A stretch of DNA of 32,000 bases, taken from Candidatus Poseidoniaceae archaeon. GTDB lineage: Archaea; Thermoplasmatota; Poseidoniia; Poseidoniales; Poseidoniaceae. How positions within the stretch are numbered: position 1 is the first letter of the stretch; each line of letters begins with the position of its first letter. The stretch spans positions 570,001 through 602,000 of the forward strand of contig CALSTM010000003.1 in the NCBI GenBank assembly GCA_943789275.1, given 5' to 3'. The notes beneath the pieces were generated by a model that worked only from the letters and a program-made list of their open reading frames with translations, made no database searches and was not told the DNA's origin. Below, piece by piece: positions 2-32,000 of the stretch. A program made the translations under genes and the position numbers.

Positions 2-823
2 GCCGTTGCTGTGTCTGCTGGAGGTTCCCACATCTGCGCCATCCTTGACAACGGCGACCTGAAGTGTTGGGGGCGGGACAATTACGGACAGTTGGGCGAC
101 GGTGGAAGCAACACGGACACCAACGCACCTTCATCCACCGCCATCAACCTCGGCACGGGCCGAACGGCCGTTGCGGTGGCTGCTGGATCTTACCATGAGT
201 TTACCTGTGCCATCCTTGACAACGGCGACCTGAAGTGTTGGGGGCGGGACACTTCGGGACAGTTGGGCGATGGAGCAGGCACCAATAACCTCAACGCACC
301 TTCTTCCACGCCGATTGACCTTGGCAGTGGCCGAACGGCCGTTGCGGTGTCTGCTGGAAGTGCCCACGCCTGCGCCATCCTTGACAACGGTGACCTGAAG
401 TGTTGGGGGTCTAACTCCTTTGGGTCGTTGGGCGATGGAGGAAGCCACGCGTACACCAACGCACCTTCATCCACCGCCATCAACCTCGGCACGGGCCGAA
501 CGGCCGTTGCTGTGTCTGCTGGAAATGGCTTCACCTGCGCCATCCTTGACAACGGTGAGGCGAAGTGTTGGGGGTATGACTACAGTGGACAGTTGGGCGA
601 TGGAGGAAGCAACACGAACACCAACGCACCTTCATCCACCGCCATCAACCTCGGCACGGGCCGAACGGCCGTTGCGGTGGCTGGTGGAAATGGCCACAAC
701 TGCGCCATCCTTGACAACGGTGAGGCGAAGTGTTGGGGGTATAACTCCCAAGGAGAGTTGGGCGACGGTGGAAGCAACACCAATCAGGGTTCACCGGTAG
801 CTGTTTCTGGCAGCAACACCTGG
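2..823 (+). repeat. RCC1-type beta-propeller blades (5 in window) of protein A
   Basis: ~159-bp periodic units carry CAILDNG..KCWG and TGRTAVAV[AS]AG. The minus- and plus-strand shadow ORFs between 131 and 857 reflect this periodicity. Confidence 0.85.
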
Positions 824-2815: not shown

Positions 2816-5091
2816 TCAACAATTCGATGACTGCACCAATTCCTCCAGCAAACCCAGTACCAGGTGCAGTTTGGGAAGTCTCTCCTGACTTGCCGGATGG
2901 CCTCGTGCTCGACCCAGCAACGGGAATCATTACCGGAACGCCAACACAATCAATGGACAACACGACGTTCACCATGTGGGCCAACACAACCACGCCAAGC
3001 ATGTCGATTATCTCGACGTTCTGGCTTGAAGTGCTTGAGGACAGCGACGGTGATGGAATGCCAGACGCACTTCCAGACGATTATCCTGACATGAATCCAC
3101 CTTACGATTTGGTCGAAGATTTGGACGACGATAACGACGGTATGTCGGATGACGATGAAGCAATCATTGGAACCGACCCTACCAATCCTGATTCAGACGG
3201 CGACGGATTCTGTGATGGTAACGGAACGGGCGATGGCGACTGCTATGCAGGACCTGACTCCTCACCGCTTGACCCAGCACTGCCAGCCAATACTGATGGT
3301 GATGCGTATCCTGATGACGACCCAGACGGTGAAGGCGGCTTAGTTGCTGATACCGATGACGACAACGATGGTTTCCTTGATACCCGTGAATTGGAGTGTC
3401 TATCTGACTCTCTCGATGCGACAGACGTGCCTGAAGACCTTGATGGTGACGGGGAATGTGATGCATTAGACGACGATATTGACGGTGACGGATTGATCAA
3501 CGATCTTGAATCCAATACTGGTGTTTACAATCCACCTTTCGAAACAGGAACAGACCCTCGTAATGCTGACACCGATGGTGACGGCGTTTGCGATGGCGAC
3601 GAATCTCCACCGAACAACAATTGCACTGCAGGACACGATGCGTTCCCGCTTGACCCTGCAGCTCACGCAGACACTGACGGTGACGGGTTCCCTGACGAAC
3701 TGTTCGGAAATTCAACCAGCACTCCTCCACTCACGCTCGATATGGACGATGACAACGATGGATGGACCGACGTTGATGAAACGGCGTGCGGCACAGACAG
3801 TTTGGATGACGCAAGTACACCCGTTGATACCGATGTAGACGGCATTTGTGATGCACTGGATGACCTGTTGGATCTACCGTTTACGATGACATACCCAACC
3901 CAAAATCTAACCATTGGAGTTGGCGAAGAAATGATCCCTTTCCTGCCGAATATTACCGGTTTAGGAGAGGTTGCAACGTGGGAAATCAGTGGAGAATTGC
4001 CCGATGGCCTCACCTTTGGTTGGAGTCCTGCTCGAGATGCCTTGTTGGATGGAAGTATTCGCGGAACACCACTGAATGCCTCGGAAATGAGCAACCTCAC
4101 CATCTGGGCGAACAATTCTGCTTACAGTCAATCGTTCGAAGTGTCTCTCACCGTCAACGATGTTGTTTCAGATGACAGTGATGGTGATGCTGAATCCAGT
4201 CTCAAGTGGGGTTACATCTGTTGTCCTTTACTGCTGTTGATTTTGCTTGCAGTGTTCTTAATCTTCATGCCAAATGAAAAGACCGTTTTGAAAGATGCAG
4301 AGCCTGAACATACGGTTGTGAAACCAAGAACAAAGAAAGGCAGTGGAACAGAAGATGATCCGTTTGTGTTGAAATCGATTAAGGGTGTAAAACCTGGAAG
4401 TCTTGTTTACAGCAAAGAAATCATCACAATCGATGAGATTTCCCCGAACCTTTTGATTAAGTGTGAAGACCGTAACAGTTCTTCGAAGTTCCAAAGCATG
4501 AAATTGTCAAATGAACTGCTTGAAACAGACAGTGAAGAGGATGAACCAGCACTGATTTCTACAGCAATTAATGCGACTGAACACGGTGTCATTCGTTTCA
4601 AGTTGGTCTACGATGACAGCGAATTGCCAACATTTGCAGGCCAGACCGTCAAGGCCTTGGTTAAGGTTGGTAACAATTCTGTCTACTTCCTTTGGGAAAT
4701 TGAAATCAAGAAAGATTCAGATTGGCAGAAAAAGATGGCTGCGAGTGATGCAGAATCCGACGATGAATCTGGAAACGCTGTCGTCGAGTACGTCACTGAA
4801 AAAGCGACGGTTGCCAAAGAGAAAACGCACTCCGTTCTTGATATGGATGGCGACGGTAAACTCACCGTTGAAGACGTTAAGCGCGGTGCTACTCAAATGG
4901 CAGAAAACGCCAAGAAGGGCGTTGAAATCGTCAAAGAGAAGGTTGTTGCTGCTAAGGTTGCGACCGACGCCAAGCTTGCCGAAAGAAAAGCTGCTAAGGA
5001 AACCAAGGCTGCCAAGCAAGCCAAGGCCCAAGCCGATGCAGATGCCAAGGAAGCCAAAGCTGCAGAACAGAAGGCTGCGCAAGGAGGCTGA
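2521..5091 (+). CDS. Surface protein A, fragment 2 of 3: Ig-like/TSP3 modules, membrane-proximal Ig-like domain, TM helix, cytoplasmic juxtamembrane domain, start of Ala/Lys/Glu-rich helix
   Basis: Frame 1 is open from 2449. Homology resumes at 2488 (SDTSSITFDFNLQILEDTDRDG), matching the paralogous junctions SLSWNFTIEILEDSDGDG and IISTFWLEVLEDSDGDG. The fragment is collinear with gene B from its TSP3 block through the TM and the AEPEHT...GSGT..DPFV segment. The ORF-track start TTG 2521 is only the first start-like codon. Confidence 0.85.
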   Translation: MQILEDTDRDGLPNDLPDDYPVDGELIEDLDDDGDGASDLSETGTGIYNGTDDMGTDPLDPDTDDDGICDGPNDVLPQCIGGPDSNPFGTGPLGPTVLVNNSMTAPIPPANPVPGAVWEVSPDLPDGLVLDPATGIITGTPTQSMDNTTFTMWANTTTPSMSIISTFWLEVLEDSDGDGMPDALPDDYPDMNPPYDLVEDLDDDNDGMSDDDEAIIGTDPTNPDSDGDGFCDGNGTGDGDCYAGPDSSPLDPALPANTDGDAYPDDDPDGEGGLVADTDDDNDGFLDTRELECLSDSLDATDVPEDLDGDGECDALDDDIDGDGLINDLESNTGVYNPPFETGTDPRNADTDGDGVCDGDESPPNNNCTAGHDAFPLDPAAHADTDGDGFPDELFGNSTSTPPLTLDMDDDNDGWTDVDETACGTDSLDDASTPVDTDVDGICDALDDLLDLPFTMTYPTQNLTIGVGEEMIPFLPNITGLGEVATWEISGELPDGLTFGWSPARDALLDGSIRGTPLNASEMSNLTIWANNSAYSQSFEVSLTVNDVVSDDSDGDAESSLKWGYICCPLLLLILLAVFLIFMPNEKTVLKDAEPEHTVVKPRTKKGSGTEDDPFVLKSIKGVKPGSLVYSKEIITIDEISPNLLIKCEDRNSSSKFQSMKLSNELLETDSEEDEPALISTAINATEHGVIRFKLVYDDSELPTFAGQTVKALVKVGNNSVYFLWEIEIKKDSDWQKKMAASDAESDDESGNAVVEYVTEKATVAKEKTHSVLDMDGDGKLTVEDVKRGATQMAENAKKGVEIVKEKVVAAKVATDAKLAERKAAKETKAAKQAKAQADADAKEAKAAEQKAAQGG
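3040..3883 (+). other. Long TSP3-like Asp-rich Ca-binding block of protein A
   Basis: Repeated D.D.DG.[PC]D / DTDDDNDG loops with conserved Cys (DGICDG, DGVCDG). It is collinear with 23524-24335 in gene B, including ...ACGTDSLDDASTPVDTD.D.ICD.LD.LLDLPF. Confidence 0.7.
4216..4269 (+). other. Transmembrane helix of protein A
   Basis: ICCPLLLLILLAVFLIFM is preceded by an acidic stalk (DDSDGDAESS) and followed by Lys-rich sequence. Confidence 0.8.
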
Positions 5092-5470
5092 AGCAAGCCA
5101 AGGCTGCTGAAGAGAAGGCTGCTAAGGAAGCCAAAGCACAAGCTGATGCTGACGCAAAGGCTGCCAAGCAAGCCAAGGCTGCTGAAGAGAAGGCTGAGAA
5201 GGAAGCTGAGAAGCAAGCCAAGGCCCAAGCCGATGCAGATGCCAAGCAAGCCAAGGCTGCTGAAGAGAAGGCTGAGAAGGAAGCTGAGAAGCAAGCCAAG
5301 GCCCAAGCCGATGCAGATGCCAAGGAAGCCAAAGCACAAGCTGATGCTGACGCAAAGGCTGCTAAGGAAGCCAAGGCTGCTGAAGAGAAGGCGGCTAAGG
5401 AAGCCAAGGCTGCTGAAGAGAAGGCTGAGAAGGAAGCTGCTGCCAAGAAGAAGGCTGAGAAGAAACCAGC
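4948..5470 (+). repeat. Ala/Lys/Glu/Gln-rich low-complexity helical region of protein A (contains frameshift 2 and a perfect 78-bp tandem duplication)
   Basis: AKQAKAQADADAKEAKAAE... composition. Units 5169-5246 and 5247-5324 are identical. Confidence 0.85.
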
Positions 5471-6086
5471 ATCGAAGGAAGTCAAGAAAAAGGAAGAACT
5501 CAAGCGGGTTCAAGAACGCTCGGAAACGATTGACTTTTCGATTCTTGGAACAGCCAAGGCAAGCGACAAAGACGACCTTCAAGTCATGAAGGGTATTGGC
5601 CCATTCATTGAAGAAAAGCTCAATGCGCTCGGAATCTACACTTACCTACAAGTCTCGAAGATGACCTCAAAACTTGAAACAGACGTCAACGAGGCCATCG
5701 AGTTCTTCCCTGGCCGTGTCAAGCGAGACCAATGGGTCAACCAGGCGAAGATTTTGCTCGGTGAGGACGTGAAACTCGATGAGAAGGCACTCAAGCAAGC
5801 CGAAGACCTCGAACGAATCTCCAAGAAGGCTGAGTCAATTGACTTCGCTACGCTTGGTGTTGCAAGCGCTTCCGAGAAGGACTCGCTGCAGACAATCAAA
5901 GGGATTGGTCCGTTTATTGAAGAGAAGTTGAATGCGCTTGGTATTTACACCTTCGAACAAGTTGGAAACATGACGCCTGATATTGAAGAACAGGTCAACA
6001 AGGCCATCGAGTTCTTCCCAGGCCGTGTCAAGCGAGACCAATGGGCGAAGCAGTCAAGGGCTCTTCACGAACAAACTACTAAGTGA
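5091..6086 (+). CDS. Surface protein A, fragment 3 of 3: rest of Ala/Lys/Glu-rich helix plus two C-terminal helix-hairpin-helix modules
   Basis: Frame 0 has no ATG/GTG/TTG before 5586, which explains ORF track 5586..6086. From 5091 it translates as KQAKAAEEKAAKEAKAQADADAK..., continuous with fragment 2 and collinear with the gene B C-terminus. Stop TGA is at 6084-6086. Confidence 0.8.
   Translation, partial: KQAKAAEEKAAKEAKAQADADAKAAKQAKAAEEKAEKEAEKQAKAQADADAKQAKAAEEKAEKEAEKQAKAQADADAKEAKAQADADAKAAKEAKAAEEKAAKEAKAAEEKAEKEAAAKKKAEKKPASKEVKKKEELKRVQERSETIDFSILGTAKASDKDDLQVMKGIGPFIEEKLNALGIYTYLQVSKMTSKLETDVNEAIEFFPGRVKRDQWVNQAKILLGEDVKLDEKALKQAEDLERISKKAESIDFATLGVASASEKDSLQTIKGIGPFIEEKLNALGIYTFEQVGNMTPDIEEQVNKAIEFFPGRVKRDQWAKQSRALHEQTTK
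5571..6068 (+). other. Two tandem helix-hairpin-helix modules (COG3743/NuoE C-terminal-extension-like) of protein A
   Basis: The pattern L[QK].[IM]KGIGPFIEEKLNALGIYT..Q......[DE]....AIEFFPGRVKRDQW..Q[AS] occurs twice. It matches my memory of the L..I.G[IV]GP..E..L...GI..F.Q[IV]A...........F.GR[IV].R[DE].W..QA motif family. Confidence 0.55.
5589..6053 (+). repeat. 465-bp tract 100% identical to 26149-26613 (copy 1)
   Basis: Line-by-line comparison at offset 20,560 bp found no mismatch. Flanks diverge immediately: 5576, 5579 and 5588 upstream, and 6054 onward downstream. Confidence 0.95.
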
Positions 6087-24100: not shown

Positions 24101-26643
24101 ACGGCGATTCAATACTCGACGTCGATGATGCTTTCCCACTTGATGAAAACGAAACCGTTGATACCGATGGTGACGGAACCGGAGACAACGAAGACACTGA
24201 CGATGACGATGACGGATGGTCAGATACCAATGAAAGTGCATGTGGTACTGACGCTCTAAGTAACGCCAGCACTCCTGTAGACACCGATTCAGACCTCATA
24301 TGTGATTCATTGGATGAACTGTTGGACCTACCGTTCAACCTCACTTACCCATCAAACAACTTGACGCTTATGATTGGTGAGGAAATGACTCCACTGCTTC
24401 CAAACATCACCGGTGCTGGTGAAGTCGAAACTTGGGAACTCGAAGGTGAACTACCTGATGGTTTGGTCTTCGGATGGAGTCCTGCTCGTGATGCACAACT
24501 GGATGGAAGTATCCGAGGAACGCCTACAGTGGAATGGGACCTGACGACGTACACCATTTGGGGTAACAACTCAGGATACAGCCAATCGTACGTGGTAACT
24601 CTTGGAGTAGAGACACCTGAACTGACAACGGACTCGGACGATGATAGTAACGATTCAGACTCGAGTTCGATGTACGCTCTATGTTGCCTACCGCTTCTCC
24701 TGTTGCTCCTCCTTGTCTTCCTCCTTCGCCGAAAGAAGTCAGTTCTACTCGACGCAGAGCCAGAACACACAACTTCCAAGCCGAAGTGCAAGAGTGGTTC
24801 AGGTACTCGAGAAGACCCATTCGTGGTTACGCCACTGACCGATGTCACATCTGGATCTCTCGTCTTCAGTAAGGAAGCATTCACGACCAAGGAAGTGGAG
24901 CCTTCTGGAGCATACGATGCTGGAGACGAATACAACTCAGATAACGAAGGCCGATTCAAGGTTGTCAACCACCACATTGACGCTGATGAGTTGGAGGGTG
25001 AGGATGTTGGACTCACACGCCAACTCATTTCCGATGAAGACGGTGTACTCAAGTATCAACTGGCCTTTGATGACCGTGACGTTCCTTCCGATGCCTCGGA
25101 ATCTTACGAAACGCTGTTCAAGGTAGGAAATGGCTCTGTTTACTTCAAGTGGGCTGTTGAAATAGCAAGCGATAAGAAATCTAAGAACAAGTCGAAAAAG
25201 AAGGCTAAAGTTGCCGCTAAGGACGATGGAGAAACACTGGACAAGGCTCAAATTATTGCTGAGGCAACCGGTCGTTCAGTTGAGTCCATTGTTGAAGACT
25301 TGGAAGATGACGGTATAGTGAATCTATCAAATGAATCCAATGAACAGGCTGAAACCGACGCAAAATCTGCAAAGAAAGCCAAGGCAATGGCCGAAGCGGA
25401 TGCTAAGGCTGCTAAGGAAGCCAAGGCAAAGGCCGAAGCAGATGCCAAGGCTGCAAAGGATGCCAAGGCACAGGCCGAAGCCGATGCCAAGGCCGCCAAG
25501 GAGGTCAAGGCAAAAGCCGAAGCAGATGCCAAGGCCGCTAAGGATGCAGAAGCTAAGGCAAAAGCAGAAGCGGACGCTAAGGCTGCAAAGGAAGCCAAGG
25601 CACAGGCCGAAGCCGATGCCAAGGCTGCCAAGGAAGCTAAGGCAAAGGCAGAAGCCGATGCCAAGGCCGCTAAGGAAATCCAAGCTAAAGCAGAAGCTGA
25701 GGCTAAGGCCGCCAAGGATGCTAAAGCCAAAGCGGAAGCTGAAGCAAAGGCTGCCAAGGAAGCCAAAGCCAAGGCAGAAGCAGAGGCAAAGGCTGCGGCT
25801 GCGGCTGCTAAAAAGCAAGCAACAAAGAAACCTGTAACACAGGAAGTCAAGAAGCAGGAAGAATTGAAGCGAGTCAAATCTCGCGCAGATACCATTGACT
25901 TTAAGACTCTAGGAAAAGCCACAACTTCGACTTTGAAGACTGAAGTTAAGAAAGGTGCAACGACTTTGCAAGTATCTGATGCTTCCGAATTCGAAGATTC
26001 AGGTTCCGCTGCCATCACCGATGAAAGCGGTAGTTCAGTCATCTCATGGACCGGCAAGGACGGTAACGCTCTCACCGGTGTTAAAGGCGTAACTCGTGTC
26101 TTTGGTACAGCTACCGTGGTAATGGTCAAGGACGATCTCCAAGTCATCAAGGGTATTGGCCCATTCATTGAAGAAAAGCTCAATGCGCTCGGAATCTACA
26201 CTTACCTACAAGTCTCGAAGATGACCTCAAAACTTGAAACAGACGTCAACGAGGCCATCGAGTTCTTCCCTGGCCGTGTCAAGCGAGACCAATGGGTCAA
26301 CCAGGCGAAGATTTTGCTCGGTGAGGACGTGAAACTCGATGAGAAGGCACTCAAGCAAGCCGAAGACCTCGAACGAATCTCCAAGAAGGCTGAGTCAATT
26401 GACTTCGCTACGCTTGGTGTTGCAAGCGCTTCCGAGAAGGACTCGCTGCAGACAATCAAAGGGATTGGTCCGTTTATTGAAGAGAAGTTGAATGCGCTTG
26501 GTATTTACACCTTCGAACAAGTTGGAAACATGACGCCTGATATTGAAGAACAGGTCAACAAGGCCATCGAGTTCTTCCCAGGCCGTGTCAAGCGAGACCA
26601 ATGGGCGAAGCAGGCTCGTGAATTGCACAGTAACAAAAAGTGA
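6142..26643 (+). CDS. Giant (6,833 aa) type-I membrane surface protein B: signal peptide, 64 tandem He_PIG/cadherin-like Ig domains, TSP3 block, TM helix, long cytoplasmic tail with coiled-coil-like helix and 2 HhH modules
   Basis: Single frame-1 ORF from ATG 6142 to TGA 26641-26643. The N-terminus has a Lys-containing n-region plus hydrophobic SVILSLLMISMSLSAGIV. Positions 6454-23523 hold 64 units of 87-92 aa; units 7-60 are exactly 89 aa (267 bp). The unit core motif is FTLTK...M...TPT.SGG.V.SW..SP.LP.GL......TG.ISGTPT......YTVTATN.GG......TI.VND. Positions 23524-24335 are Asp-rich D.D.DG..D loops. Positions 24336-24610 are a divergent Ig-like domain. The TM helix at 24673-24726 is followed by RRKK. 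Confidence 0.9.
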   Translation: MHGADALLPLTLKANKTASNGSNSLKSVILSLLMISMSLSAGIVQSSPSHETLEKSSSELSLSTISDSVSSGLAELSSLLGLVEDQPAELEQSNADAMLTGGRSVPSVSYSPSTFNLVRNTAMSDQTPTSSGGTVTSWSISPTLPSGISISSSTGTISGTPTVISASTSYTVTATNGAGSDTATITISVTDALPVIVYSPNTFTEAVGTAMTSVTPTSYAGTVDSYSISPSLPPGLSLDTSTGTVSGTPTAVSSSTSYTVTATNSAGTDTASLTIVVNDVAPTSISYSPNTFTLTKGTLISTVTPTSSGGAVTSWTISPSLPAGLSLASSDGAISGTPTEVSSLQTYTVTGTNTGGSATAEITIQVNDVAPIIGYPTTSYTLVKGSAMSSPATPTSTGGTVVTWDVSPTLPSGLTISSSTGVISGTPTTVTSSAVYTVTATNTGGTDTATVTIQVNDVQPLIGYSPSSILLSKGTTMSPASPTLYGQGQVDSWSVSPSLPAGISLDSSTGIITGMPTTISPSATYTITATNTGGTDTATLTITVNDATPSIAFSTNSFTLTKGTAMTTTTPSSTGGAVVTWSISPSLSAGLSFDSSTGTLSGTPTVVSASTVYTITATNTGGSDSATVTIVVNDIAPSAIAYSPSSFTLTKDSAMTAATPTSSGGTVVSWAVSPSLPAGLLLDTSTGEISGTPTAVTSSATYTVTATNTGGDATTTVTIVVNDVIPSSVSYSDSPFTLTKDSLMTASTPTYSGGTVISWAVSPSLPAGLAFSTSTGEISGTPSAVTSSATYTITATNTGGDATTTVTIVVNDIIPSSVSYSGSPFTLTKDSLMTASTPTYSGGTVISWAVNPSLPAGLVLDTSTGEISGTPTAVTSSATYTITASNTGGSATTTVTIVVNDIIPSSVTYSPNSFTLTKDSSMTATTPTASGGPVVSWAVSPSLPAGIVIDSSTGEISGTPTAVTSSATYTITATNTGGSATTTVTIVVNDIIPSSVAYSPNSFTLTKDSSMTATTPTSSGGPVVTWTVSPTLPAGIVIDSSTGEISGTPTAVTSSATYTITATNTGGDATTTVTIVVNDIIPSSVSYSDSPFTLTKGTTMTASTPTSSGGTVISWAVSPSLPAGLAFSTSTGEISGTPSAVTSSATYTITATNTGGDATTTVTIVVNDVIPSSVSYSGSPFTLTKDSAMTAATPTSSGGTVVSWAVSPSLPSGLVIDSSTGVISGTPTAITASATYTITATNTGGDATTTVTIVVNDIIPSSVSYSGSPFTLTKGTTMTASTPTYSGGTVISWAVNPSLPAGLVLDTSTGEISGTPSAVTSSATYTITATNTGGDATTTVTIVVNDIIPSSVTYSPNSFTLTKDSSMTATTPTSSGGPVVSWAVSPSLPAGLVLDTSTGEISGTPTAVASSATYTITATNTGGDATTTVTIVVNDIIPSSVSYSDSPFTLTKGTTMTASTPTSSGGTVISWAVSPSLPAGLAFSTSTGEISGTPSAVTSSATYTITATNTGGDATTTVTIVVNDVIPSSVSYSGSPFTLTKDSAMTAATPTSSGGTVVSWAVSPSLPAGLVIDSSTGVISGTPTAVTSSATYTVTATNTGGSSTATVTIVVNDVIPSSVSYSDSPFTLTKDSLMTASTPTYSGGTVISWAVSPSLPAGLAFSTSTGEISGTPSAVTSSATYTITATNTGGDATTTVTIVVNDIIPSSVTYSPNSFTLTKDSVMSATTPTYNGGTVVSWAVNPSLPAGLAFSTSTGEISGTPTSVTSSATYTVTATNTGGSATTTVTIVVNDIIPSSVTYSPNSFTLTKDSVMSATTPTYNGGTVVSWAVNPSLPAGLAFSTSTGEISGTPTSVTSSATYTVTATNTGGSATTTVTIVVNDIIPSSVTYSPNSFTLTKDSVMSASTPTYNGGTVISWAVSPSLPAGLAFSTSTGEISGTPTAVTSSATYTVTATNTGGDATTTVTIVVNDIIPSSVAYSPNSFTLTKDSSMTATTPTASGGPVVTWTVSPTLPAGIVIDSSTGELSGTPTAVTSSATYTITATNTGGSATTTVTIVVNDIIPSSVSYSDSPFTLTKDSLMTASTPTYSGGTVISWAIDSTLPAGLAFSTSTGEISGTPSAVTSSATYTITATNTGGSATTTVTIVVNDIIPSSVAYSPNSFTLTKDSSMTATTPTASGGPVVTWTVSPTLPAGIVIDSSTGEISGTPTAVTSSATYTVTATNTGGSATTTVTIVVNDIIPSSVAYSPNSFTLTKDSSMTATTPTSSGGPVVSWAVSPSLPAGIVIDSSTGEISGTPTAVTSSATYTITATNTGGDATTTVTIVVNDVIPSSVSYSGSPFTLTKDSAMTAATPTSSGGTVVSWAVSPSLPAGLVIDSSTGVISGTPTAITASATYTITATNTGGDATTTVMIVVNDVAPSSITYSPSSLSLNKDLTMTAATPTSSGGAVVSWTISPTLPAGLSFDASTGTISGTPTTITSSAAYTVTATNTGGSATATITIVVNDAAPSSITYNPSSFTLTKGTAMTSVTPTSSGGTVTTWSVSPPLPSGISIDSSTGQISGTPTAVVSSAAYTVTATNAGGSDTATVTIVVNDVAPSSIFYSGNPFTLTKDSTMPSATPSSFGGTVISWSISPTLPAGLVIDASTGVISGTPTAVTSSATYTVTATNSGGSDSTTITVQVNDVIPSSVSYSGSPFTLTKDAAMAPAAPTASGGTVITWAVSPSLPAGLSLSTSTGVISGTPTAITSSATYTVTATNSGGSATATITVVVNDVIPSSITYSPSSFTLTKDSAMTAVTPSSNGGTVETWSVSPSLPAGLAFSTSTGEISGTPTAVTSSASYTVTATNTGGSATTTVTVVVNDIIPSSVAYSPSSFTLTKDSAMTTATPTSNGGTVISWAISPAVPAGLAFSTSTGAISGTPTEITASATYTVTATNTGGSATTTVVIVVNDVAPSSVFYSGSPFTLTKNSAMTSATPSAFGGTVVSWSVSPSLPAGLSFDTSSGTISGTPAAVTASATYTVTATNTGGSDSATITIQVNDVAPSSVSYSGSPFTLTKDTTMAPSAPTVSGGTVITWAVSPSLPAGLSLSTSTGVISGTPTAITASASYTVTATNTGGSTTATITVIVNDVAPSSVTYSPSSLTLTKDQAMSAATPTSSGGAVVTWAITPSLPTGLAFSTSTGTISGTPTALSSSATYTVTATNTGGSATATLTIEVNIAAPTSVTYSPSSFTLTKDVAMTTVTPTASGGTITSWSISPTLPAGLSFDTSNGAVSGTPTAVSSSATYTVTATNAGGSGTATLTFQVNDVAPSSIAYSPSSISLSKDSPMTAVTPTASGGAVVSWSISPTLPAGLSFDTSTGTISGTPTAITASAIYTVIATNSGGSASSTVTIVVNDAAPSSVSYSPSSFTLTINNAMTSVTPTASGGTVTSWTISPTLSSGLSFDTSTGTISGTPTAVSSSTVYTITATNAGGSGTATVTIQVNDVAPSGITYTPNSFTLAKDSAMTTVTPTSTGGTVVSWSVSPTLPAGLSLDTSTGAISGTPTAISSSATYTVTATNSGGSATATVTIQVTVAAPSSIAYSTSSFTLTKDVAITAVTPTSSGGTVSSWSISPTLPAGLAFSTTDGTVSGTPTAISALTSYTVTATNQGGSSTATLTVQVNDVAPSSIAYSPSFLTLTKDTPMVTATPTSSGGTVTSWSISATLPAGLSLDASTGGISGTPTATSSAVTYTVTATNTGGSSTTTVTILVNDAAPTSVSYSPSSSILTKGNAMTSVTPTSSGGTVTSWAITPSLPAGLSFSTSTGAIGGTPQAVSASTTYTVTASNAGGSDTTTVTIQVNDVAPYSVSYSGTPFTLTKGSAMTTATPSASGGAVDSWSVTPQLPAGLTLDTSTGTISGTPAAVTSSASYTVTATNTGGSSTASVTIVVNDVIPSSITYSGNPFTLTKGSLMTADTPTSSGGTVVSWSVSPTLPAGLSFDTSTGTISGTPNAITASATYTVTATNTGGSATATLTIIVNDAPPSSVAYSSSPFTLTKDVAMTTATPTSSGGSVDSWSITPTLPAGLSFDTSTGAISGTPTAITSSATYTVTATNEGGSATATVTIIVNDAAPSSLTYNPSSFNLAKGTAMTTVTPTSSGGAITSWTISSTLPAGLSFDTSTGAISGTPTAITAYASYTITASNTGGSDTATVTIIVNDAAPSSITYSGSPFSLTKGVAMTSATPTASGGAVTFWSISPTLPTGLSFDTSNGTISGTPADVSSSATYTVTATNAGGSDTASVSIQVNDIAPSSVAYSPSFLTLTKDTPMTTSTPTSSGGTVVSWSISPSLTAGLSIDSSTGAISGTPTVTSTATTYTVTATNSGGGATTTVTILVNDAAPSSVTYSPSSHTLTKDVAMTTVTPTASGGAVTSWTISPSLPAGLSIDSSTGAISGTPTAVTPTTIFTVSATNAGGTGTTTVTIQVNDVAPYAVSYTGTPFTLTKGSAMTTTTPTASGGAVDSWSITPALPSGLSMDTSTGALSGTPMVVISSTTYTITATNTGGSVSTTVTFVVNDVTPSSIAYSGNPFTLTKDIAMTASTPTSSGGDVVTWQVSPSLPTGLIFDTSTGEISGTPTVITSSAAYTVTATNTGGSATTTVTIVVNDAAPSSVAFSGNPFSLTKDVTMTTATPTASGGAITSWSVTPTLPAGLSFDTSTGAISGTPTAITSSAAYTVTAVNTGGSDSVTITIEVNDVIPSSITYNPTSFTLIKDSAMTSVTPTSSGGAVTSWTVSPSLPAGLSLDSSTGEISGTPTAITAYGTYTITASNTGGSATASVTILVNDAAPSSLAYSASPFTLTKGSAMTSATPTFSGGTPTFWAISPTLPAGLAFDTSTGTISGTPTAVSSSATYTLTATNAGGSDSTTFTLQVNDIPPSSVSYSQSFFSLANGTTMTDETPSTTGGTVTSWTISPALPAGLTLSATTGVISGTPTTTSSATTYTVTATNSGGGATTTFTLLVTVAPPSSVSYSPSSFTLTINNAMTTVTPTASGGEVTSWSITPTLPAGLSFDPSTGNISGTPTAVSPSTSYTVTATNQGGSDTATVTIQVNDVTPYSIVYSGTPFTLTKGTAMTSVTPTNSGGSVDTWSITPALPSGLSLDTSTGTLSGTPGVVSSSTTYTITAENTGGSSTVTVSIVINDVIPSAITYSGNPFTLTKDTAMTTSTPTASGGNVTGWSVTPELPAGLSFDTSTGAISGTPTAITSSASYTVTATNTGGSATTTVTVVVNDVIPSSLDYSGSPFALTVGTTMTANIPTSNGGAVTSWTVSPTLPAGLSLDSTTGEISGTPTAITSSATYTVTASNTGGSDSVAITLVVNDVTPSSVVYGGSPYVLTNNSIMTADTPTSSGGSVVSWTISPSLPAGLTLDSSTGEISGTPTELSSLSTYTVTATNTGGSATATVTIVVNDVVPTVSYSPDDLSMTNNTVSSDLPLAPTLTGAGEVVSWTISPALPNGLAFDTSTGVLSGTAMELLARTMFTINATNSGGTATTYVNITVVDSIPTVTYLPDDLSMTNDTASVDLPLAPTLTGAGEIVSWTISPALPNGLTFDTSTGVLSGTPIELFNRTMFTVNATNTGGTATAYINITVLDSVPIVEYVPSDIELLSNSSVVDIVPLSTGGAVLQWSITPELSPGLSFDTSTGRISGVPAEISNQTLYTITASNDDGSIMAYVNITVEDTVYDTTAGPIYMLDNTTINAIAPISTISGSQFEIHPALPQGLMFGESNGTIYGTPTEVIGLTNFTIYSNSSLFNDSFKVQLQVLADTDGDSMPDQLPENYNSTGGLVEDLDDDGDGFTDADEEDCLSASLDLNSVPLDLDGDNVCDALDDDIDGDGLPNSVEDNSGIFTSVNSTGTDPLNADTDGDGICDGPTAINGTCTLGPDAFPNDKSASIDTDGDGMPDELNGTSTSTPPLVEDTDDDDDSVLDVDDAFPLDENETVDTDGDGTGDNEDTDDDGDSILDVDDAFPLDENETVDTDGDGTGDNEDTDDDDDGWSDTNESACGTDALSNASTPVDTDSDLICDSLDELLDLPFNLTYPSNNLTLMIGEEMTPLLPNITGAGEVETWELEGELPDGLVFGWSPARDAQLDGSIRGTPTVEWDLTTYTIWGNNSGYSQSYVVTLGVETPELTTDSDDDSNDSDSSSMYALCCLPLLLLLLLVFLLRRKKSVLLDAEPEHTTSKPKCKSGSGTREDPFVVTPLTDVTSGSLVFSKEAFTTKEVEPSGAYDAGDEYNSDNEGRFKVVNHHIDADELEGEDVGLTRQLISDEDGVLKYQLAFDDRDVPSDASESYETLFKVGNGSVYFKWAVEIASDKKSKNKSKKKAKVAAKDDGETLDKAQIIAEATGRSVESIVEDLEDDGIVNLSNESNEQAETDAKSAKKAKAMAEADAKAAKEAKAKAEADAKAAKDAKAQAEADAKAAKEVKAKAEADAKAAKDAEAKAKAEADAKAAKEAKAQAEADAKAAKEAKAKAEADAKAAKEIQAKAEAEAKAAKDAKAKAEAEAKAAKEAKAKAEAEAKAAAAAAKKQATKKPVTQEVKKQEELKRVKSRADTIDFKTLGKATTSTLKTEVKKGATTLQVSDASEFEDSGSAAITDESGSSVISWTGKDGNALTGVKGVTRVFGTATVVMVKDDLQVIKGIGPFIEEKLNALGIYTYLQVSKMTSKLETDVNEAIEFFPGRVKRDQWVNQAKILLGEDVKLDEKALKQAEDLERISKKAESIDFATLGVASASEKDSLQTIKGIGPFIEEKLNALGIYTFEQVGNMTPDIEEQVNKAIEFFPGRVKRDQWAKQARELHSNKK
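8044..13383 (+). repeat. Homogenised core of the array (units 7-26): a few unit subtypes shuffled, ~99% DNA identity between copies
   Basis: 9313-9817 vs 10381-10885 (offset 1068 = 4 units) shows 3 mismatches in ~505 bp by eye. Units 19 and 20 differ at 2 of 267 positions. Confidence 0.85.
17122..22737 (+). repeat. Three copies of a 7-domain (1869-bp) super-repeat (units 41-47, 48-54, 55-61)
   Basis: Units 41/48/55, 42/49/56 and 43/50/57 resemble each other far more than their neighbours (e.g. VAPY.VSY.GTPFTLTKG.AMT recurs only every 7th unit). Shadow ORFs 17142 and 19011 are 1869 bp apart. Confidence 0.75.
23524..24335 (+). other. TSP3-like Asp-rich Ca-binding block of protein B
   Basis: DTDGDSMPD, DLDDDGDGFTD, DTDGDGICDG and similar loops. 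It includes an internal 105-bp tandem duplication (24001-24105 / 24106-24210). Confidence 0.75.
24673..24726 (+). other. Transmembrane helix of protein B
   Basis: YALCCLPLLLLLLLVFLL is preceded by the acidic DSDDDSNDSDSSS and followed by RRKK. The positive-inside rule places the C-terminal tail in the cytoplasm. Confidence 0.85.
25390..25815 (+). repeat. Ten tandem 14-residue (42-bp) units AEA[DE]AKAAK[ED]AKA[KQ] (one 16-residue unit)
   Basis: Unit boundaries checked at 25390 and 25564. Units differ at synonymous positions (gcc/gca/gct, aag/aaa). Confidence 0.85.
26131..26628 (+). other. Two tandem helix-hairpin-helix modules (COG3743/NuoE C-terminal-extension-like) of protein B
   Basis: Same motifs as 5571-6068. 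Each module is preceded by a short ...IDF..LG.A... element. Confidence 0.55.
26149..26613 (+). repeat. 465-bp tract 100% identical to 5589-6053 (copy 2)
   Basis: See copy 1. Confidence 0.95.
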
Positions 26644-26678: not shown

Positions 26679-26921
26679 GAGCCAACGGTGCATCGACTCA
26701 AGAAAAAATCTGACGTCGCGGGAATGGAAAACCAGTTCTCCAGAACGGTGGGTTTTTGACACCTCACTACGGCAGTTCCTTAGAAAGGTTCTATTCTTTC
26801 CGACGTCAGCAAACATCATGGGCGTCGTGTTAAACGAGCGTAATGGCTGCATTTGGCGATTGGATGTTGGTCTTGTTCAGATGGTCGAGACTGATGTTTC
26901 TTTTGAAGGAAGGTGATATGT

Positions 26922-27602
26922 ATGGGTGGATTAAAAGCGAGCGGTGATATGCGGTATTTTCAGATACGTATTCTGCATGAGCAAGCCCAGCATTTACCAG
27001 GGAATATCCTTACGAAGTTCTTCAGCAAAGTGGAAATGGTTACTGGAACTGGGGTTGTGGACTCCATCCCAACATGTATTCTCAGGGTAGAGCATGATGG
27101 CGTTGACATTAGGAAACTCAAAGATCAACTCAAGGGGAGTTTAATCATCGATAAAATCCTCCAAGAAGGGGATGATTATGCCTACTTGAAAGCGAAAACT
27201 CCTGGACCGATTCAACTCATTATTGGGGCTGAAGAGGAAGCATGGATTATGCCACCATCGTATCTCTCCAGAGAAAGTGGTTTCTTTATGACCATACACG
27301 GCACGCCGAAAGGGCTGAAGAGAATCAAAGACAAATTAGAGGCATTGATTCCTGAAAAAATGGATATGCGAATTTCAAAACTGATTATCGGCGATTGGAT
27401 GTCTGCTCCAAAACTGCCAAATAAGCGTTATTTAGCTATTAAAACTGCAGTTGATATGGGTTATTACAGCACTCCTCGAAGGTGCAATCAAAGCGATATT
27501 GCAGAAGTTTTGGGTGTTAAACAAGGAACCGTTGCAGAACATTTACACTTCGCTGAAAGCATAATCATCAATTCTTGGTCCGAGCAAACATCGAGTTCAT
27601 AG
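26922..27602 (+). CDS. HTH_10 (bacterio-opsin-activator-type) helix-turn-helix transcriptional regulator
   Basis: The C-terminal RYLAIKTAVDMGYYSTPRRCNQSDIAEVLGVKQGTVAEHLHFAESIII fits the HTH_10 pattern (GY[FY]..PR....[DE][IL]A..LG[IV]...[TV].EHL..AE) typical of Euryarchaeota. An AGGTGAT Shine-Dalgarno-like motif at 26910-26916 lies 5 nt before ATG 26922. Alternative starts are GTG 26913 (ORF track) and ATG 26949 (MRYFQIRIL...). Confidence 0.75.
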   Translation: MGGLKASGDMRYFQIRILHEQAQHLPGNILTKFFSKVEMVTGTGVVDSIPTCILRVEHDGVDIRKLKDQLKGSLIIDKILQEGDDYAYLKAKTPGPIQLIIGAEEEAWIMPPSYLSRESGFFMTIHGTPKGLKRIKDKLEALIPEKMDMRISKLIIGDWMSAPKLPNKRYLAIKTAVDMGYYSTPRRCNQSDIAEVLGVKQGTVAEHLHFAESIIINSWSEQTSSS

Positions 27603-28208
27603 CCCTCGGATTGAGATAATCGTTGCCAATATGAAAAGTAAACTTCCTAAAACAGTAAATGCTTTTTTGAGGAACTTCGGCTCGTCTGTTTTCGATTTTA
27701 TCTTCTCGCCAAGATTCGACCAAACCAACATGGCGAGAATCCCGCCGCTTGTTGTAATGCTGGTGATGGTCAAGATGCCAACTACACCTCCGCCGAAATC
27801 ATCCAAAAATTTCGTCATCAACATGAACACCATGGCCCATTCCTTGCCATTTACATATTGCATCAAGACGCCGGTTTTGAATCCTAATTTAGGGACCACT
27901 TCAGGAAAATTTTGTATTTTTTCCGAACGTCCAAGATACAAAATACCGAAGGCGATTAAAAACATGAATAACGAACCAATGATGTCCATTACGGTGCGGA
28001 CTGTTCCGTCTTCATCAAAAGAATCAACAGCCATACCGCAGATGAAATGTATGGAACTGAAGCCCAAAGCCATTCCAGCAATCAGCGGTAAATTACTTTT
28101 TTTTCCATGCACAACTGCATGAACTGTACAGGTAATGTTGTTCGGTCCAGGCGTAATCAATCCGGCGAGAAGTAATGCCAGTAAGTATGCTAACGAATCC
28201 CACGGCAT
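27597..28208 (-). CDS. LysE/RhtB-family small-molecule (amino-acid type) exporter
   Basis: This is a multi-pass hydrophobic protein. MPWDSLAYLLALLLAGLITPGPNNI... carries the family-typical N-terminal PGP motif and gives ~203 aa. The ORF track extends to 28427, but those extra 73 codons are hydrophilic and atypical for the family, so I prefer the ATG at 28206-28208 (complement). The stop overlaps the HTH gene end by 6 bp (convergent). Confidence 0.75.
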   Translation of the reverse strand: MPWDSLAYLLALLLAGLITPGPNNITCTVHAVVHGKKSNLPLIAGMALGFSSIHFICGMAVDSFDEDGTVRTVMDIIGSLFMFLIAFGILYLGRSEKIQNFPEVVPKLGFKTGVLMQYVNGKEWAMVFMLMTKFLDDFGGGVVGILTITSITTSGGILAMLVWSNLGEKIKSKTDEPKFLKKAFTVLGSLLFILATIISIRGL

Positions 28209-28451
28209 GCTGATGGCAATGAAATACACGGTATAGTTATTTTGTTGTGTTGCCGATTTAATGATTGGTCTGTTCGTTTTTCGGTTTCTTTGAGATTGAC
28301 TAAACCGTCGTAGATTCAGCTCTTCTTGAACGGGGTTGAAGAGCCACTTGTGCGAAATTATAGGGTCAACTATGATAGTCAGTTCGTCGTTGGTTGGCGC
28401 ATGAATGATGCCGATGGTATAGGTCACAGCCGTGTATTTGGACTAAAATCC

Positions 28452-28922
28452 ATGAAATCACTCCTTCTTGCCGTGTTAATGGTCTCCATGTCCCTTTCTG
28501 TGGGCCTTGTGGAACTGAACAAAGCCCCTTGGCTTGTTGAAGACGGTGAAAGCGAACTTGAAGAGTTAAACAATCCCATGCACACAACCGCACCTTCGAT
28601 TTCCTATTCCTCAAGCACACTCGCTCTTTCCAACAACACCGCTATGACGCCAGTGACAGCGACGAATTCAGGTGGTACGGTTGGAGTTCCGGTGGCAATA
28701 GAACTCAGTACCATCGATGAATGGCTGTCTTTAGCCCTTGATTCTGATGGATACAGGCATGTTTCCGCTGCCGACACCACCAGTAGTGATCTCATGTATG
28801 CGACCGACACCAGTGGGGCTTGGGTCAACATAACCGTTGATGCTCCAGGACAGGTCGGGGAATACAACTCAATCGCTGTTGATTCTGAAGACGTCGTGCA
28901 TATTGCCTACTTCAGCCTATAA
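28452..28922 (+). CDS. Surface protein C, fragment 1 of 2: signal peptide, first half of an Ig-like domain, first blades of a beta-propeller
   Basis: I chose ATG 28452 over ORF-track TTG 28326 for two reasons. MKSLLLAVLMVSMSLSVGLVE aligns with the gene B leader LKSVILSLLMISMSLSAGIVQ, and LVEDGESELEELN aligns with LVEDQPAELEQSN. The frame-0 stop at 28920 cuts a repeat unit (..VHIAYFSL*) that continues in frame 1. Confidence 0.8.
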   Translation: MKSLLLAVLMVSMSLSVGLVELNKAPWLVEDGESELEELNNPMHTTAPSISYSSSTLALSNNTAMTPVTATNSGGTVGVPVAIELSTIDEWLSLALDSDGYRHVSAADTTSSDLMYATDTSGAWVNITVDAPGQVGEYNSIAVDSEDVVHIAYFSL

Positions 28923-29787
28923 GGATGATACGAACGCACTTACTCAAGACCTCAAGTACGCTACGTGCGCATCATCATGCGCATCAGCATCTTCATGGTC
29001 AAACATCACCCTTGACGCCACTGGTTTTGTAGGCGAGAGAACCTCCATCGCAGTTGATTCAAATGATGGAGTGCATATTTCCTACACCGATAATACCAAC
29101 AATGCACTGAAGTATACCATGTGCTCCTCATCTTGTGGTACAGCATCTTCATGGTCGAATGTTTCTGTTGACGATATAGGAACCGGTGATACTAAACCAA
29201 CTGATATCGCGATTGATTCAAACGATGCAGTACACATTGCCTACCATTGGCAAGGAATCAGTAATCTCAACATACGATATGCCACGTGTACTACCTCGTG
29301 TGCATCGGCATCCTCATGGACAAACACATCAGGTATTAGCCTCAGCAACATACACGATGTGGCACTCGCAATTGATTCAAACGACGCACTGCACATTGCT
29401 GGCTATGATTATGACAATAAGGATATCATTTACCTCGCATGTACCTCTTCATGTACTTCTACCTCTTCATGGTCAAATATTAGCGCTGTTACCACTGGCG
29501 AAGTTGGTGCACGATTATCGATTGCAGTTGATTCTACGAATAACCCACACATATCCTATCAGGCTGGTGCGTGGGCCGTACATGTTGGTCTGCCCCTTGG
29601 ATACGCCACTTGCACTTCATCGTGTCTAACTGCCTCAAGCTTTTGGACTCACGGTACTGTTCATAGCGGCTCCGCCGTTTACACCTATGGTACATCAATT
29701 GCAGTCAATCATAACAACGATAGCGTACATATCGTCCATGGCAATTTGTTTTCCAAATTTTACTACCTCGGCTCAGACACTGCTCCA
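28719..29787 (+). repeat. Seven ~50-60-aa beta-propeller-like blades; blades 2-6 carry a C-x3-C pair
   Basis: Recurrent SIA[VI]DS.[DN]..HI[AS]Y....[LI].YA[TM]C..SC...SSW[ST]N. The blades start near EWLSLALDSDG, EYNSIAVDSED, ERTSIAVDSND, PTDIAIDSND, DVALAIDSND, ARLSIAVDSTN and YGTSIAVNHNN. Confidence 0.7.
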
Positions 29788-32000
29788 TATACCGTAAGTC
29801 CCGACCTTCCAAGTGGTTTGAGTTTGGATTGGAGCAGCGGAAAAATTTCTGGGACACCGAGAGAACTCTCCACCTCCACGATCTACACCATTACCGCAAG
29901 AAATGCACATGGTTCGGATACCGCAACACTGACCATTTCGGTCAACGCACCACCTTCGCTGTCCTACGATTTGGGTACAGGAAACAGCACTTCAGTCTAT
30001 TCCAACAAACAGGTTGCTGCAGGATACCAACACACCTGCGCCATTCTTGACAATGGTTCTGTGATGTGCTGGGGAGAGAATGGCCACGGACAGTTAGGCA
30101 ATGGTGGAACAGGCGACGAACACATACCCGTTTGGGTTGATCTTGGCACGGATAGGACCGCCGTTGCGATCACTGCTGGATACAGACACACCTGCGCCAT
30201 TCTTGACAACGGTTCAGTTTCCTGTTGGGGACAGGGAATTTTTGGGCAATTAGGTAATGGAGGAACATCACAACAAACCTCACCAACGCTCACCAGCAGC
30301 CTTGGAACCGGCCGTACGGCCGTAGCGATCACTGCTGGATACAGTCACACCTGCGTCATTCTTGACAACGGTTCAGTTTCCTGTTGGGGAATCGGAAATA
30401 AAGGACACTTGGGTAACGGAGGTACATCACAACAAAACTCACCAACGCTCACCAGCAGCCTTGGTACCGGCCGTACGGCCGTAGCGATTTCTGCTGGACA
30501 ATATCACTCCTGCGCCATTCTTGACAGCGGTTCAGTTTCCTGTTGGGGGTATGGAATTGAGGGACAATTGGGTAACGGAGGTACATCACAACAAAACTCA
30601 CCAACACTCACCAGCAGCCTTGGAACCGGTCGTACGGCCGTAGCGATTTCTGCTGGAGGCATCCACACCTGTGCCATACTTGACAACGGTTCAGTCTCAT
30701 GTTGGGGGGAGGGAAGTAAAGGACGATTGGGTAACGGAGGTACATCACAACAAAACTCACCAACGCTCACCAACAGCCTTGGAACCGGTCGTACGGCCGT
30801 AGCGATTTCTGGTGGAGCCAAACACACCTGCGCCATTCTTGACAGCGGTTCAGTCTCATGTTGGGGAGATGGAGCCATTGGCATACTGGGTGACGGGGGG
30901 ACATCAGATCAACACTCACCAACGCTCACCAGCAGCCTTGGAACTGGCCGAACGGCAGTTGCGCTTGAGAATGGACACGCCCACACCTGTGCCATTCTTG
31001 ACGACGCTTCCATGAAGTGTTGGGGAAATGACAACAACAAGCAGTTAGGCAATGGAGCCACAGGCAGCACCGGCGACCCACCCGTTTTGGTATCAGGCAG
31101 CCATACGTGGGACTCCACGATGATTTCAGGTTCATCAAGTACAGTTTACCTTGTACAGAATGCGCTTATGAGTTCACTTTCTCCAACGTTAGACGCTGGC
31201 TTCGGTGCACCCACTTCATGCAACCAAACAGGGCTACCTTCTGGCCTTTTACTTAGCACCACATGCGTGCTCTCAGGAACACCGACAACGTTGGGCAGTA
31301 CAACGCTGACAATTACCCCCTCGAATGCAGAAGGTAATGGTTCTGCAGCCATTTTTATCGTCAATGTGAATGCTTCAGGTGGTTCAATCACCATCAACAC
31401 AACCTCCACCGAAGGTGGCGTAGGCAGTGCCATCTCAGACATCACCATGTCGTATACACACACCGCCAGCATTCCAAATTGGGTCTCAGGTGTGACCAAC
31501 AGCACAATTAATCCAGCCCCCTCAATTCCAGCCGGCGGGGGTTCAAAACTTTCAATCGATTCTGGTCTAAACGGAGACATCGCAGCTGTGTATTCAGTGG
31601 AGCGAACCGGCGCGACCTCAGCCAATCTCTCCTTGCTCTACAAGTGGAACGGGGCATGGACAGAGAGTACCATTGACAGCAGTGTCGATACGGAGGTTCC
31701 ATCGGTTGCTATCGACCGACAGGGAGCACTTCACATCGGGTATGTCGATAAGGACAATGCCAAGTTGAAGTACGCCACCAATGCATCTGGGTCTTGGGTC
31801 GTTGAAACGTTGGGTGATGCAGCGACTCACCAATTTGCACAAACGGCAATTTCAGTGCATCCGGTCACAAATGCAATTCATATCATGGCCGTGAACGGAT
31901 CGACCATCCCAACCGCAGGATTGAATCATCACACAAACGAAACAGGTACCTGGCTCTACTCAACCATTTCTGACCCATCAGAGGAAGAGGGATTCGGGGT
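28918..32000 (+). CDS. Surface protein C, fragment 2 of 2 (3' end off-window): CxxxC beta-propeller blades, Ig-like domain, 7-blade RCC1 propeller, Ig-like domain, second propeller
   Basis: I translated frame 1 codon by codon from 28918 to 32000 and found no stop. It is absent from the ORF track, presumably because it has no in-window stop. It reads YKDDTNALTQDLKYATCASSC..., then seven blades with H[TS]CAILD[ND][GA]S..CWG....G.LG[ND]G, then LPSGLLLSTTCVLSGTPT. Confidence 0.85.
30013..31110 (+). repeat. Complete seven-blade RCC1 beta-propeller of protein C (159-bp period)
   Basis: Seven occurrences of H[TS]C[AV]ILD[ND][GA]S[VM].CWG....G.LG[ND]G, spaced 53 aa apart. Confidence 0.85.
31540..32000 (+). 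repeat. Start of a second propeller of the same blade family, without the Cys pair
   Basis: KLSIDSGLNGDIAAVY..., PSVAIDRQGALHIGYVDKDNAKLKYATNASGSWV and QTAISVHPVTNAIHIMAV repeat the h-h-D-s..g..HI.Y....LKYA....W pattern. Confidence 0.55.

Follow-up and report, generated by a model that had tools for sequence, protein, structure and literature searches.

The gene at the end of the 32,000-nucleotide stretch of a Candidatus Poseidoniaceae archaeon genome analyzed here (contig CALSTM010000003.1; the whole stretch is referred to as the window, and all coordinates are given for it) raises the question of whether a large β-propeller has been accommodated within a single Ig-like domain. This gene is cut off by the window end and codes for protein C, in which a segment corresponding to the first third of a He_PIG unit is separated from one corresponding to the remaining two thirds by an insert of 368 residues. 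We consider it very probable that the two segments represent the halves of one split He_PIG Ig-like domain, in which a seven-bladed propeller is nested. Such a domain insertion had been proposed by a sequence-only reading of the stretch, and it has gained support from complementary profile matches of the two halves, their gapless alignment after splicing, a deletion test with AlphaFold2 models, and 40 recurrences of the split among related proteins. The earlier description of the host as the N-terminal Ig domain is appropriate for protein C itself, while the split unit of its relatives is also found in the middle of He_PIG arrays.

The gene is located on the plus strand and is read in frame 0 from its start at 28452 to a TAA codon at 28920-28922, from where a stop-free frame +1 continues to the window end; repair of this shift yields a protein of 1182 residues inside the window. 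The N-terminal third of the host unit, comprising the putative strands A and B (residues 47-77; 28590-28682, plus strand), is translated in frame 0 as APSISYSSSTLALSNNTAMTPVTATNSGGTV, whereas the C-terminal two thirds with the putative strands C to G (residues 446-498; 29788-29946, plus strand) are translated in frame +1 as YTVSPDLPSGLSLDWSSGKISGTPRELSTSTIYTITARNAHGSDTATLTISVN. The canonical first third and its canonical continuation had previously been assigned to exactly these coordinates and sequences. A search of whole protein C with a local He_PIG profile, which was built from 62 units of the adjacent 6833-amino acid protein (6142-26643), yielded three real matches. These are located at residues 48-77 (profile positions 3-32; 19.6 bits, E-value 4e-8), at residues 440-498 (positions 29-87; 68.3 bits, E-value 3e-23), where the match begins at nucleotide 29770, and at residues 890-970. 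Searched singly, the N-piece scores 26.6 bits and the C-piece 76.2 bits, and the spliced halves align without a gap to profile positions 3-87 with 104.1 bits, the scores being additive. Protein C also exceeds the gathering threshold of the Pfam He_PIG family (PF05345) with 51.3 bits versus a cut-off of 24, but the contiguous match at residues 437-498 extends only over model positions 32-96 of 96; a contiguous full-model match for the split unit was not found in the Pfam scan, and the coverage of positions 2-96 was reached only by the spliced construct. This restricted coverage argues that the segment at 29788-29946 is not a complete domain by itself. The sequence-only reading had named a He_PIG alignment as a check, and it came out in the same sense with the Pfam model and the local profile, both of which treat this segment as the C-terminal two thirds only, with the missing third being located at 28590-28682. 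Judged by these alignments, the He_PIG domain of protein C is truly split by the insert, and its host unit is a clear He_PIG once spliced. In this spliced form, it resembles the tandem "putative Ig" units described by Pfam and differs from an ordinary He_PIG unit in being non-contiguous; hence, Pfam annotates only its C-terminal two thirds.

The insert between the halves (residues 78-445; 28683-29787, plus strand) contains seven repeats of the motif [S]IA[VI]D-x3-5-H[IV], which are anchored at residues 94, 141, 199, 252, 305, 357, and 414 and mark the starts of blades 1-7 at about 28722, 28863, 29038, 29197, 29356, 29512, and 29683. In its extended form, the repeat reads SIA(V/I)D-x-x-D-x-VHI-(A/S)Y ... 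LKYATC-x3-C-x4-SW-x-N-(I/V)-x-(V/L)-D. Secondary structure assignment of the AlphaFold2 model by DSSP gave 28 strands, equivalent to seven blades of four strands each, and the earlier description of this segment as seven propeller blades of some 370 amino acids has thus been borne out by its length, its anchors, and its modeled strands. Six of the blades contain four strands, while the seventh contains three strands after its anchor. The first propeller strand is unusually long (model residues 45-58) and begins with PVAIELST (28689-28712, plus strand), which occupies the strand-4 position of a blade. The strand count in the model would fit a 1+3 velcro closure, in which the strands leading into and out of the propeller would be neighbors in blade 7.

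An alternative explanation would be that the N-terminal 31 residues are a decayed He_PIG remnant and the C-piece a truncated domain, such that a remnant, a propeller, and a partial Ig domain follow each other in series without any assembly. The score of the N-piece alone, which amounts to only 19.6-26.6 bits, is in favor of this explanation, and the behavior of the two pieces in structural models bears directly on it. The full model was calculated with AlphaFold2 for residues 39-505 from a 30-sequence alignment of whole modules and reached a mean predicted local distance difference test score (pLDDT) of 84.9 and a predicted template modeling score (pTM) of 0.82. For the N-piece, the blocks reached pLDDT values of 92, 90, and 78, and the assignment comprised two strands (model residues 12-13 and 18-22) together with bridge residues (30 and 33-34), whereas the C-piece was given five strands; the 10-residue block containing the link into the propeller showed a pLDDT of about 60, which is a further point for the serial arrangement. 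The same alignment was then cut just before the C-piece (model residues 1-403) and modeled again. Under these conditions, the span of the N-piece (model residues 12-41) dropped to pLDDT values below 50 (blocks of 45, 36, and 38), and no strand was assigned before residue 45, while the propeller remained unchanged at 85-97. In the AlphaFold2 models, it is therefore the C-piece, rather than the propeller, that brings order to the N-piece, as predicted for a nested domain and opposite to what docking of the N-piece on the propeller would entail. The structure prediction recommended by the sequence-only reading has returned a confident model, and the N-piece loses order and strands as soon as the C-piece is removed. 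Neither of the two outcomes that this reading had named as contradicting the nesting was thus obtained, be it in the profile alignments or in the models.

The comparison with related proteins leads further away from a decayed remnant. The split pattern, consisting of an N-piece ending at profile positions of about 32-40, a long gap, and a C-piece starting at about 30, was observed in 31 of the 120 listed homologues, and 40 split pairs, mostly from Poseidoniales, were recorded among 262 relatives, a recurrence that is far beyond chance. The inserts of 39 of these 40 pairs are 319-374 amino acids long, and the profile position of the split junctions (about 32/33) does not differ between the copies. 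In a number of relatives, among them P0008, P0016, P0040, and P0011, the split unit is placed between complete He_PIG units with normal linkers, and without the insert, the regular He_PIG register of about 89 amino acids would be regained; two proteins (P0122 and P0126) even contain two split modules each. The 30 aligned modules are 34-85% identical to the copy in the window, and the columns that are invariant among them are P10, Y14, L21, N34, G36, and G37 in the N-piece and P412, L414, G417, G425, G429, T443, N446, and G449 in the C-piece, all of them canonical He_PIG positions. The retention of canonical core residues at such divergence, the 40 recurrences with a constant insert size and a preserved register of the flanking units, and the ordering of the N-piece only in the presence of the C-piece are all at odds with a remnant followed by a truncated domain, and we regard that explanation as quite improbable. 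The only outlier in insert length (P0049, residues 302-534, from a Thalassarchaeum-labeled contig of 2 kb) has an insert of 137 amino acids corresponding to about three blades, which may represent either a collapsed repeat assembly or a truly incomplete insert.

This outlier, whose insert resembles collapsed repeats, also touches the question of whether the insertion might be an assembly artifact, for example a chimeric join in repetitive He_PIG and propeller DNA, in which case no such protein would exist. Frame-breaking indels are indeed present in the window. In addition to the shift in the gene of protein C, a large surface-protein gene further upstream (11-6086) is broken into the open reading frames (ORFs) 11-2815, 2521-5091, and 5586-6086, indicating that the window contains several frame-breaking indels, and related contigs from metagenome-assembled genomes (MAGs) carry private indels as well. 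The split architecture was, however, found in independent assemblies from JGI, ENA, NCBI, and GOS/TARA sources, with the named sources of the homologues being Poseidoniaceae, Poseidonia, Thalassarchaeum, and "Thermoplasmatota" MAGs. Moreover, the orthologous contigs L001 and L002 from two other Poseidoniaceae MAGs, which show about 95% DNA identity to the window and are collinear with it over 3.5 kb, exhibit the same architecture, and the junctions fall on one profile position in all copies. An artifact of assembly is therefore scarcely conceivable as the origin of the nested module.

The frame shift itself has to be considered separately, because it could mean that the gene is a pseudogene or that it is subject to programmed +1 frameshifting at the sequence CUA-UAA (28917-28922), so that the nested module would either not be made or be made under regulation. 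A one-base shift in protein C had already been noticed in the sequence-only reading, and the extra base has now been located at about 28916-28920, within a frame-breaking segment at 28916-28922 (plus strand) that reads AGC CTA TAA in frame 0. In favor of this explanation, the stop codon of frame 0 lies exactly at the shift site, and the protein collection has no record of an intact product from the window; the contig index, when searched for the shortened products 28452-28919 and 28401-28919, likewise gave none. The orthologues of L001 and L002 are each one base shorter at 28916-28919 and read HIAYYSLRDD and HIAYYSNKDA, respectively, and P0004, a protein of 92% identity, continues across the shift site as HIAYYSLKDDTNALTKDLKYATC, with HIAYYSLKDD. 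Programmed frameshifting was rejected, since the reading frame is uninterrupted at this position in L001, L002, P0001, P0003, and P0004. Conservation of the shift is thus lacking, and L001 and L002 each contain their own frame-breaking indels at other places, which indicates sequencing errors or independent lesions rather than a programmed signal; the simplest and probable cause of the shift in the window is an error in sequencing or assembly, or else a lesion private to this copy. Either form of this explanation, pseudogene or regulated frameshifting, appears very unlikely to account for the locus.

For the nested domain, the following course of the polypeptide chain can be proposed. The first He_PIG domain of protein C would serve as split host, whose strands A and B (residues 47-77) are laid down first. 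The chain would then exit via the B-C connection, build the whole propeller of seven four-stranded blades (residues 78-445), and return to complete the sandwich with strands C to G (residues 446-498). If PVAIELST provides the fourth strand of the last blade in a 1+3 velcro closure, the chain would enter and leave the propeller by adjacent strands, and the whole propeller would top the Ig domain in the manner of a very large hairpin loop. Like the split domains of bacterial RTX adhesins, this arrangement would hold a ligand-binding head off the axis of a tandem He_PIG stalk. Protein C appears to be a secreted or surface protein, with its N-terminus (MKSLLLAVLMVSMSLSVGLV...) being signal-peptide-like and probably acting as a secretion signal. 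The predicted signal peptide MKSLLLAVLMVSMSLSVGLVELN is encoded from the start of the gene (28452-28520, plus strand), and the hydrophobic N-terminus is kept in P0001, P0003, P0004, and P0022-24.

The function as a binding head is suggested by the fold of the propeller. A Foldseek search against the PDB returned the seven-bladed Photorhabdus lectins PLL2, PLL, and PHL in the top ranks, with an E-value of 3e-14, target-normalized template modeling (TM) scores of 0.70-0.74, and 13-15% identity, the best TM score of 0.74 being reached with 6rg2. Further matches were obtained with GH145 enzymes, the lectin CV39L, ulvan lyases, and sialidases. From this similarity to lectins and glycan-active propellers, and from the parallel to RTX adhesins, we infer that the propeller represents a ligand-binding head; that its ligand is a glycan is a guess from the fold, in which case carbohydrates on particles or other cells would be the most likely targets. 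The Photorhabdus lectins (6rg2, 8q7u, and 6fhy) share the seven four-stranded blades with the guest, while CV39L (6gxs) yields lower TM scores of 0.59-0.65. All of these lectins are free-standing soluble proteins, in contrast to the nested propeller of protein C, in whose blades strands 3 and 4 are connected either by a C-x3-C loop or by a turn of the Asp-box-like form ATDxSGxW. The C-x3-C pair (ATCASSCASASSW) is present in the strand 3-4 loops of blades 2-6 (28863-29682), where the model shows a short helix, and may form a disulfide, while blade 1 and many blades of the relatives have the ATDxSGxW turn in its place; it seems that one loop type can be exchanged for the other. The actual Asp-box motif S-x-D-x-G-x-T-W is represented in the propeller of the window only by the variant ATDTSGAW in blade 1.

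Several points weigh against the architecture and function as proposed here. The pairing of the halves and the adjacency of the propeller termini have been derived indirectly, from the deletion test and the strand count, respectively, and both AlphaFold2 runs started from one alignment of 30 sequences; the program may just be reproducing the canonical He_PIG fold that it has recognized. The gene of protein C is frame-shifted in the window, and this particular copy may not be expressed intact. As the C-terminus lies outside the window, an anchoring of the protein at the surface is presumptive. Finally, the lectin structures share only 13-15% sequence identity with the propeller and were compared at the level of the fold.

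The closest precedent for the proposed architecture is the split domain of bacterial RTX adhesins, and protein C works alike but stands outside that family. In the RTX adhesins AhLap, FrhA, and MpIBP, Ig-like split domains project ligand-binding domains off the axis of the molecule, and the presence of split domains is already in use as a criterion for finding such binding domains (PMC12077191; PMC10865825; bioRxiv 10.1101/2025.09.30.679566). The crystal structure of a split domain together with its guest is available as 9CSE (PMC12077191; PMC10865825), and the splits have been described either to follow the first strand or to directly precede the last two (bioRxiv 10.1101/2025.09.30.679566). 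As in protein C, the surface protein is long and repetitive, one of its β-sandwich units is broken off for a complete guest domain and finished behind it, and the split unit is part of a long protein with tandem extenders, represented by at least 11 He_PIG units in the orthologue of L001 and by complete units on both sides in other relatives. The two termini of the guest are on one side in the RTX adhesins, an arrangement with which protein C would be consistent by its 1+3 strand count only. Clear differences are apparent in several other respects: protein C originates from an archaeon of the Poseidoniaceae and has a predicted Sec-type signal peptide; its host is a He_PIG unit instead of a BIg domain; its guest is a seven-bladed propeller of 368 amino acids; and its split is located after strands A and B, about one third into the domain and thus at another place than in the RTX adhesins. 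Its putative binding region is N-terminal, with the stalk following behind. Pfam gave no RTX match for the 1182 residues inside the window, and modules for RTX, type I secretion, or retention were not found there; both "propeller" and "archaea" are absent from the RTX adhesin texts searched. A literature search for adhesins of Marine Group II archaea with nested propellers likewise retrieved nothing relevant. Another example of such nesting is the integrin β subunit, in which the β-I domain is inserted in the hybrid domain, an Ig-like sandwich. This also places a large ligand-binding domain in a β-sandwich loop of an adhesion receptor, but its guest is of the von Willebrand factor A fold, and the protein is eukaryotic and has no sequence relationship to protein C.

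The family to which the propeller belongs extends far beyond this arrangement. A phmmer search against 1.84 billion cluster representatives retrieved 13,178 propeller relatives at E-values of up to 1e-3, of which 1,415 were at or below 1e-30. Among the 142 new top propeller representatives, 123 were without any He_PIG, and the propeller was joined with fn3, PKD, subtilase, MopE, and other domains. Since the propeller family is thus much wider than the cassette, the combination of He_PIG and propeller should be regarded as lineage-specific. Scans of the propeller alone gave no meaningful match and no BNR match in Pfam, and only a sub-threshold match to PDIAV_lipo (30.5 bits versus a cut-off of 90) in NCBIfam. 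PF15892 (BNR_4) is listed for some of the homologues, with a faint flag for P0004. A PDB sequence search with the module profile retrieved no relative of the propeller, and only the C-piece was matched, by the cadherin-like modules of SraP (4m03). The finding also points to a large propeller family without a curated Pfam model.

Nesting a binding domain within an Ig-like extender is an established design, which is extended here to archaea without implying a new mechanism. Its interest lies in the organisms concerned, as the Poseidoniaceae belong to the Marine Group II archaea, which abound in surface waters but are uncultivated, and in the way in which these archaea make contact with particles or phytoplankton. 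A simple sequence rule for candidate ligand-binding heads emerges, namely He_PIG profile positions 1-32, about 320-375 amino acids, and then positions of about 30-89, which is a two-piece rule of the same kind as now applied to bacterial RTX adhesins. The split unit also explains why domain annotation reports shortened He_PIG matches beside long unannotated stretches. It is tempting to go further and to view the He_PIG-propeller cassette as a hitherto undescribed module of Poseidoniales whose origin was independent of the split domains in bacterial RTX adhesins, with a guest from the 13,178-cluster family lacking a Pfam model and with heads that determine to which algal or particle glycans the most abundant archaea of the surface ocean attach, but this wider proposal is tentative and, taken as a whole, rather doubtful.

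Within protein C, the split module is followed in series by an RCC1-like propeller of seven repeats (29965-31092, plus strand), which was recognized by Pfam WD40_RLD (1e-96) and by RCC1 and RCC1_2 with seven matched stretches each. A further nesting may be suspected from the regions 29947-29990 and 31060-31130. Directly behind the split unit, the sequence APPSLSYDLG resembles a He_PIG A strand, and the RCC1 propeller starts right after it; this propeller may likewise project as a guest, inserted behind a first strand. Speaking against this, the next He_PIG unit seems to have an A strand of its own; this unit is complete, uninterrupted, and divergent (residues 890-970; 31120-31362, plus strand; local profile 4-85, 27 bits). 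A second propeller of the same repeat family as the nested one starts at 31540 (plus strand) and is cut by the window end at 32000, with VAIDRQGALHIGY...LKYATNASGSW as an example of its blade motifs. In L001, the intact orthologue comprises at least 2476 residues and continues after the second propeller with a He_PIG piece covering only profile positions 35-87 (36 bits), followed by at least 11 tandem He_PIG units, which indicates that a stalk is present. The incomplete piece suggests that a second split module may surround the second propeller (31375-32000; residues 940-1405 of the L001 ORF), with an N-piece, perhaps GSITINTTSTEGGVGSAISDITMSYT, that is too divergent for the profile; with the local profile, no N-piece was detected for this propeller (-2.4 bits).

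The neighboring genes offer a similar picture of large surface proteins. The adjacent protein of 6833 amino acids contains about 62 He_PIG units, acidic repeats of the D-x-D-x-D-G type, a hydrophobic segment, and a basic tail, and the broken gene at 11-6086 encodes RCC1 repeats, He_PIG units, acidic repeats resembling calcium-binding ones, a hydrophobic segment, and a Lys/Ala-rich tail. Together with protein C, these products may form fibrils at the cell surface, in which an Ig-like stalk bears the binding heads at its distal, N-terminal end. The C-terminal tails of both (25200-26640 and 5586-6086, respectively) have a duplicated motif IKGIGPFIEEKLNALGIYT...FFPGRVKRDQW in common, which follows a long Lys/Ala/Glu-rich repeat and is presumably a cytoplasmic module shared by these surface proteins. 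Between the giant gene and that of protein C, the window contains an ORF of 229 amino acids (26913-27602, plus strand) and an ORF of 276 amino acids for a hydrophobic, membrane-protein-like product (27597-28427, minus strand). Directly upstream of P0004, whose gene appears to run off the end of its contig, a gene for 232 amino acids with a Pfam HTH_10 match is found, which is comparable in size to the 229-amino acid ORF; only a gap of 363 nucleotides without a called gene is present on that contig at the place of the membrane-protein-like ORF.

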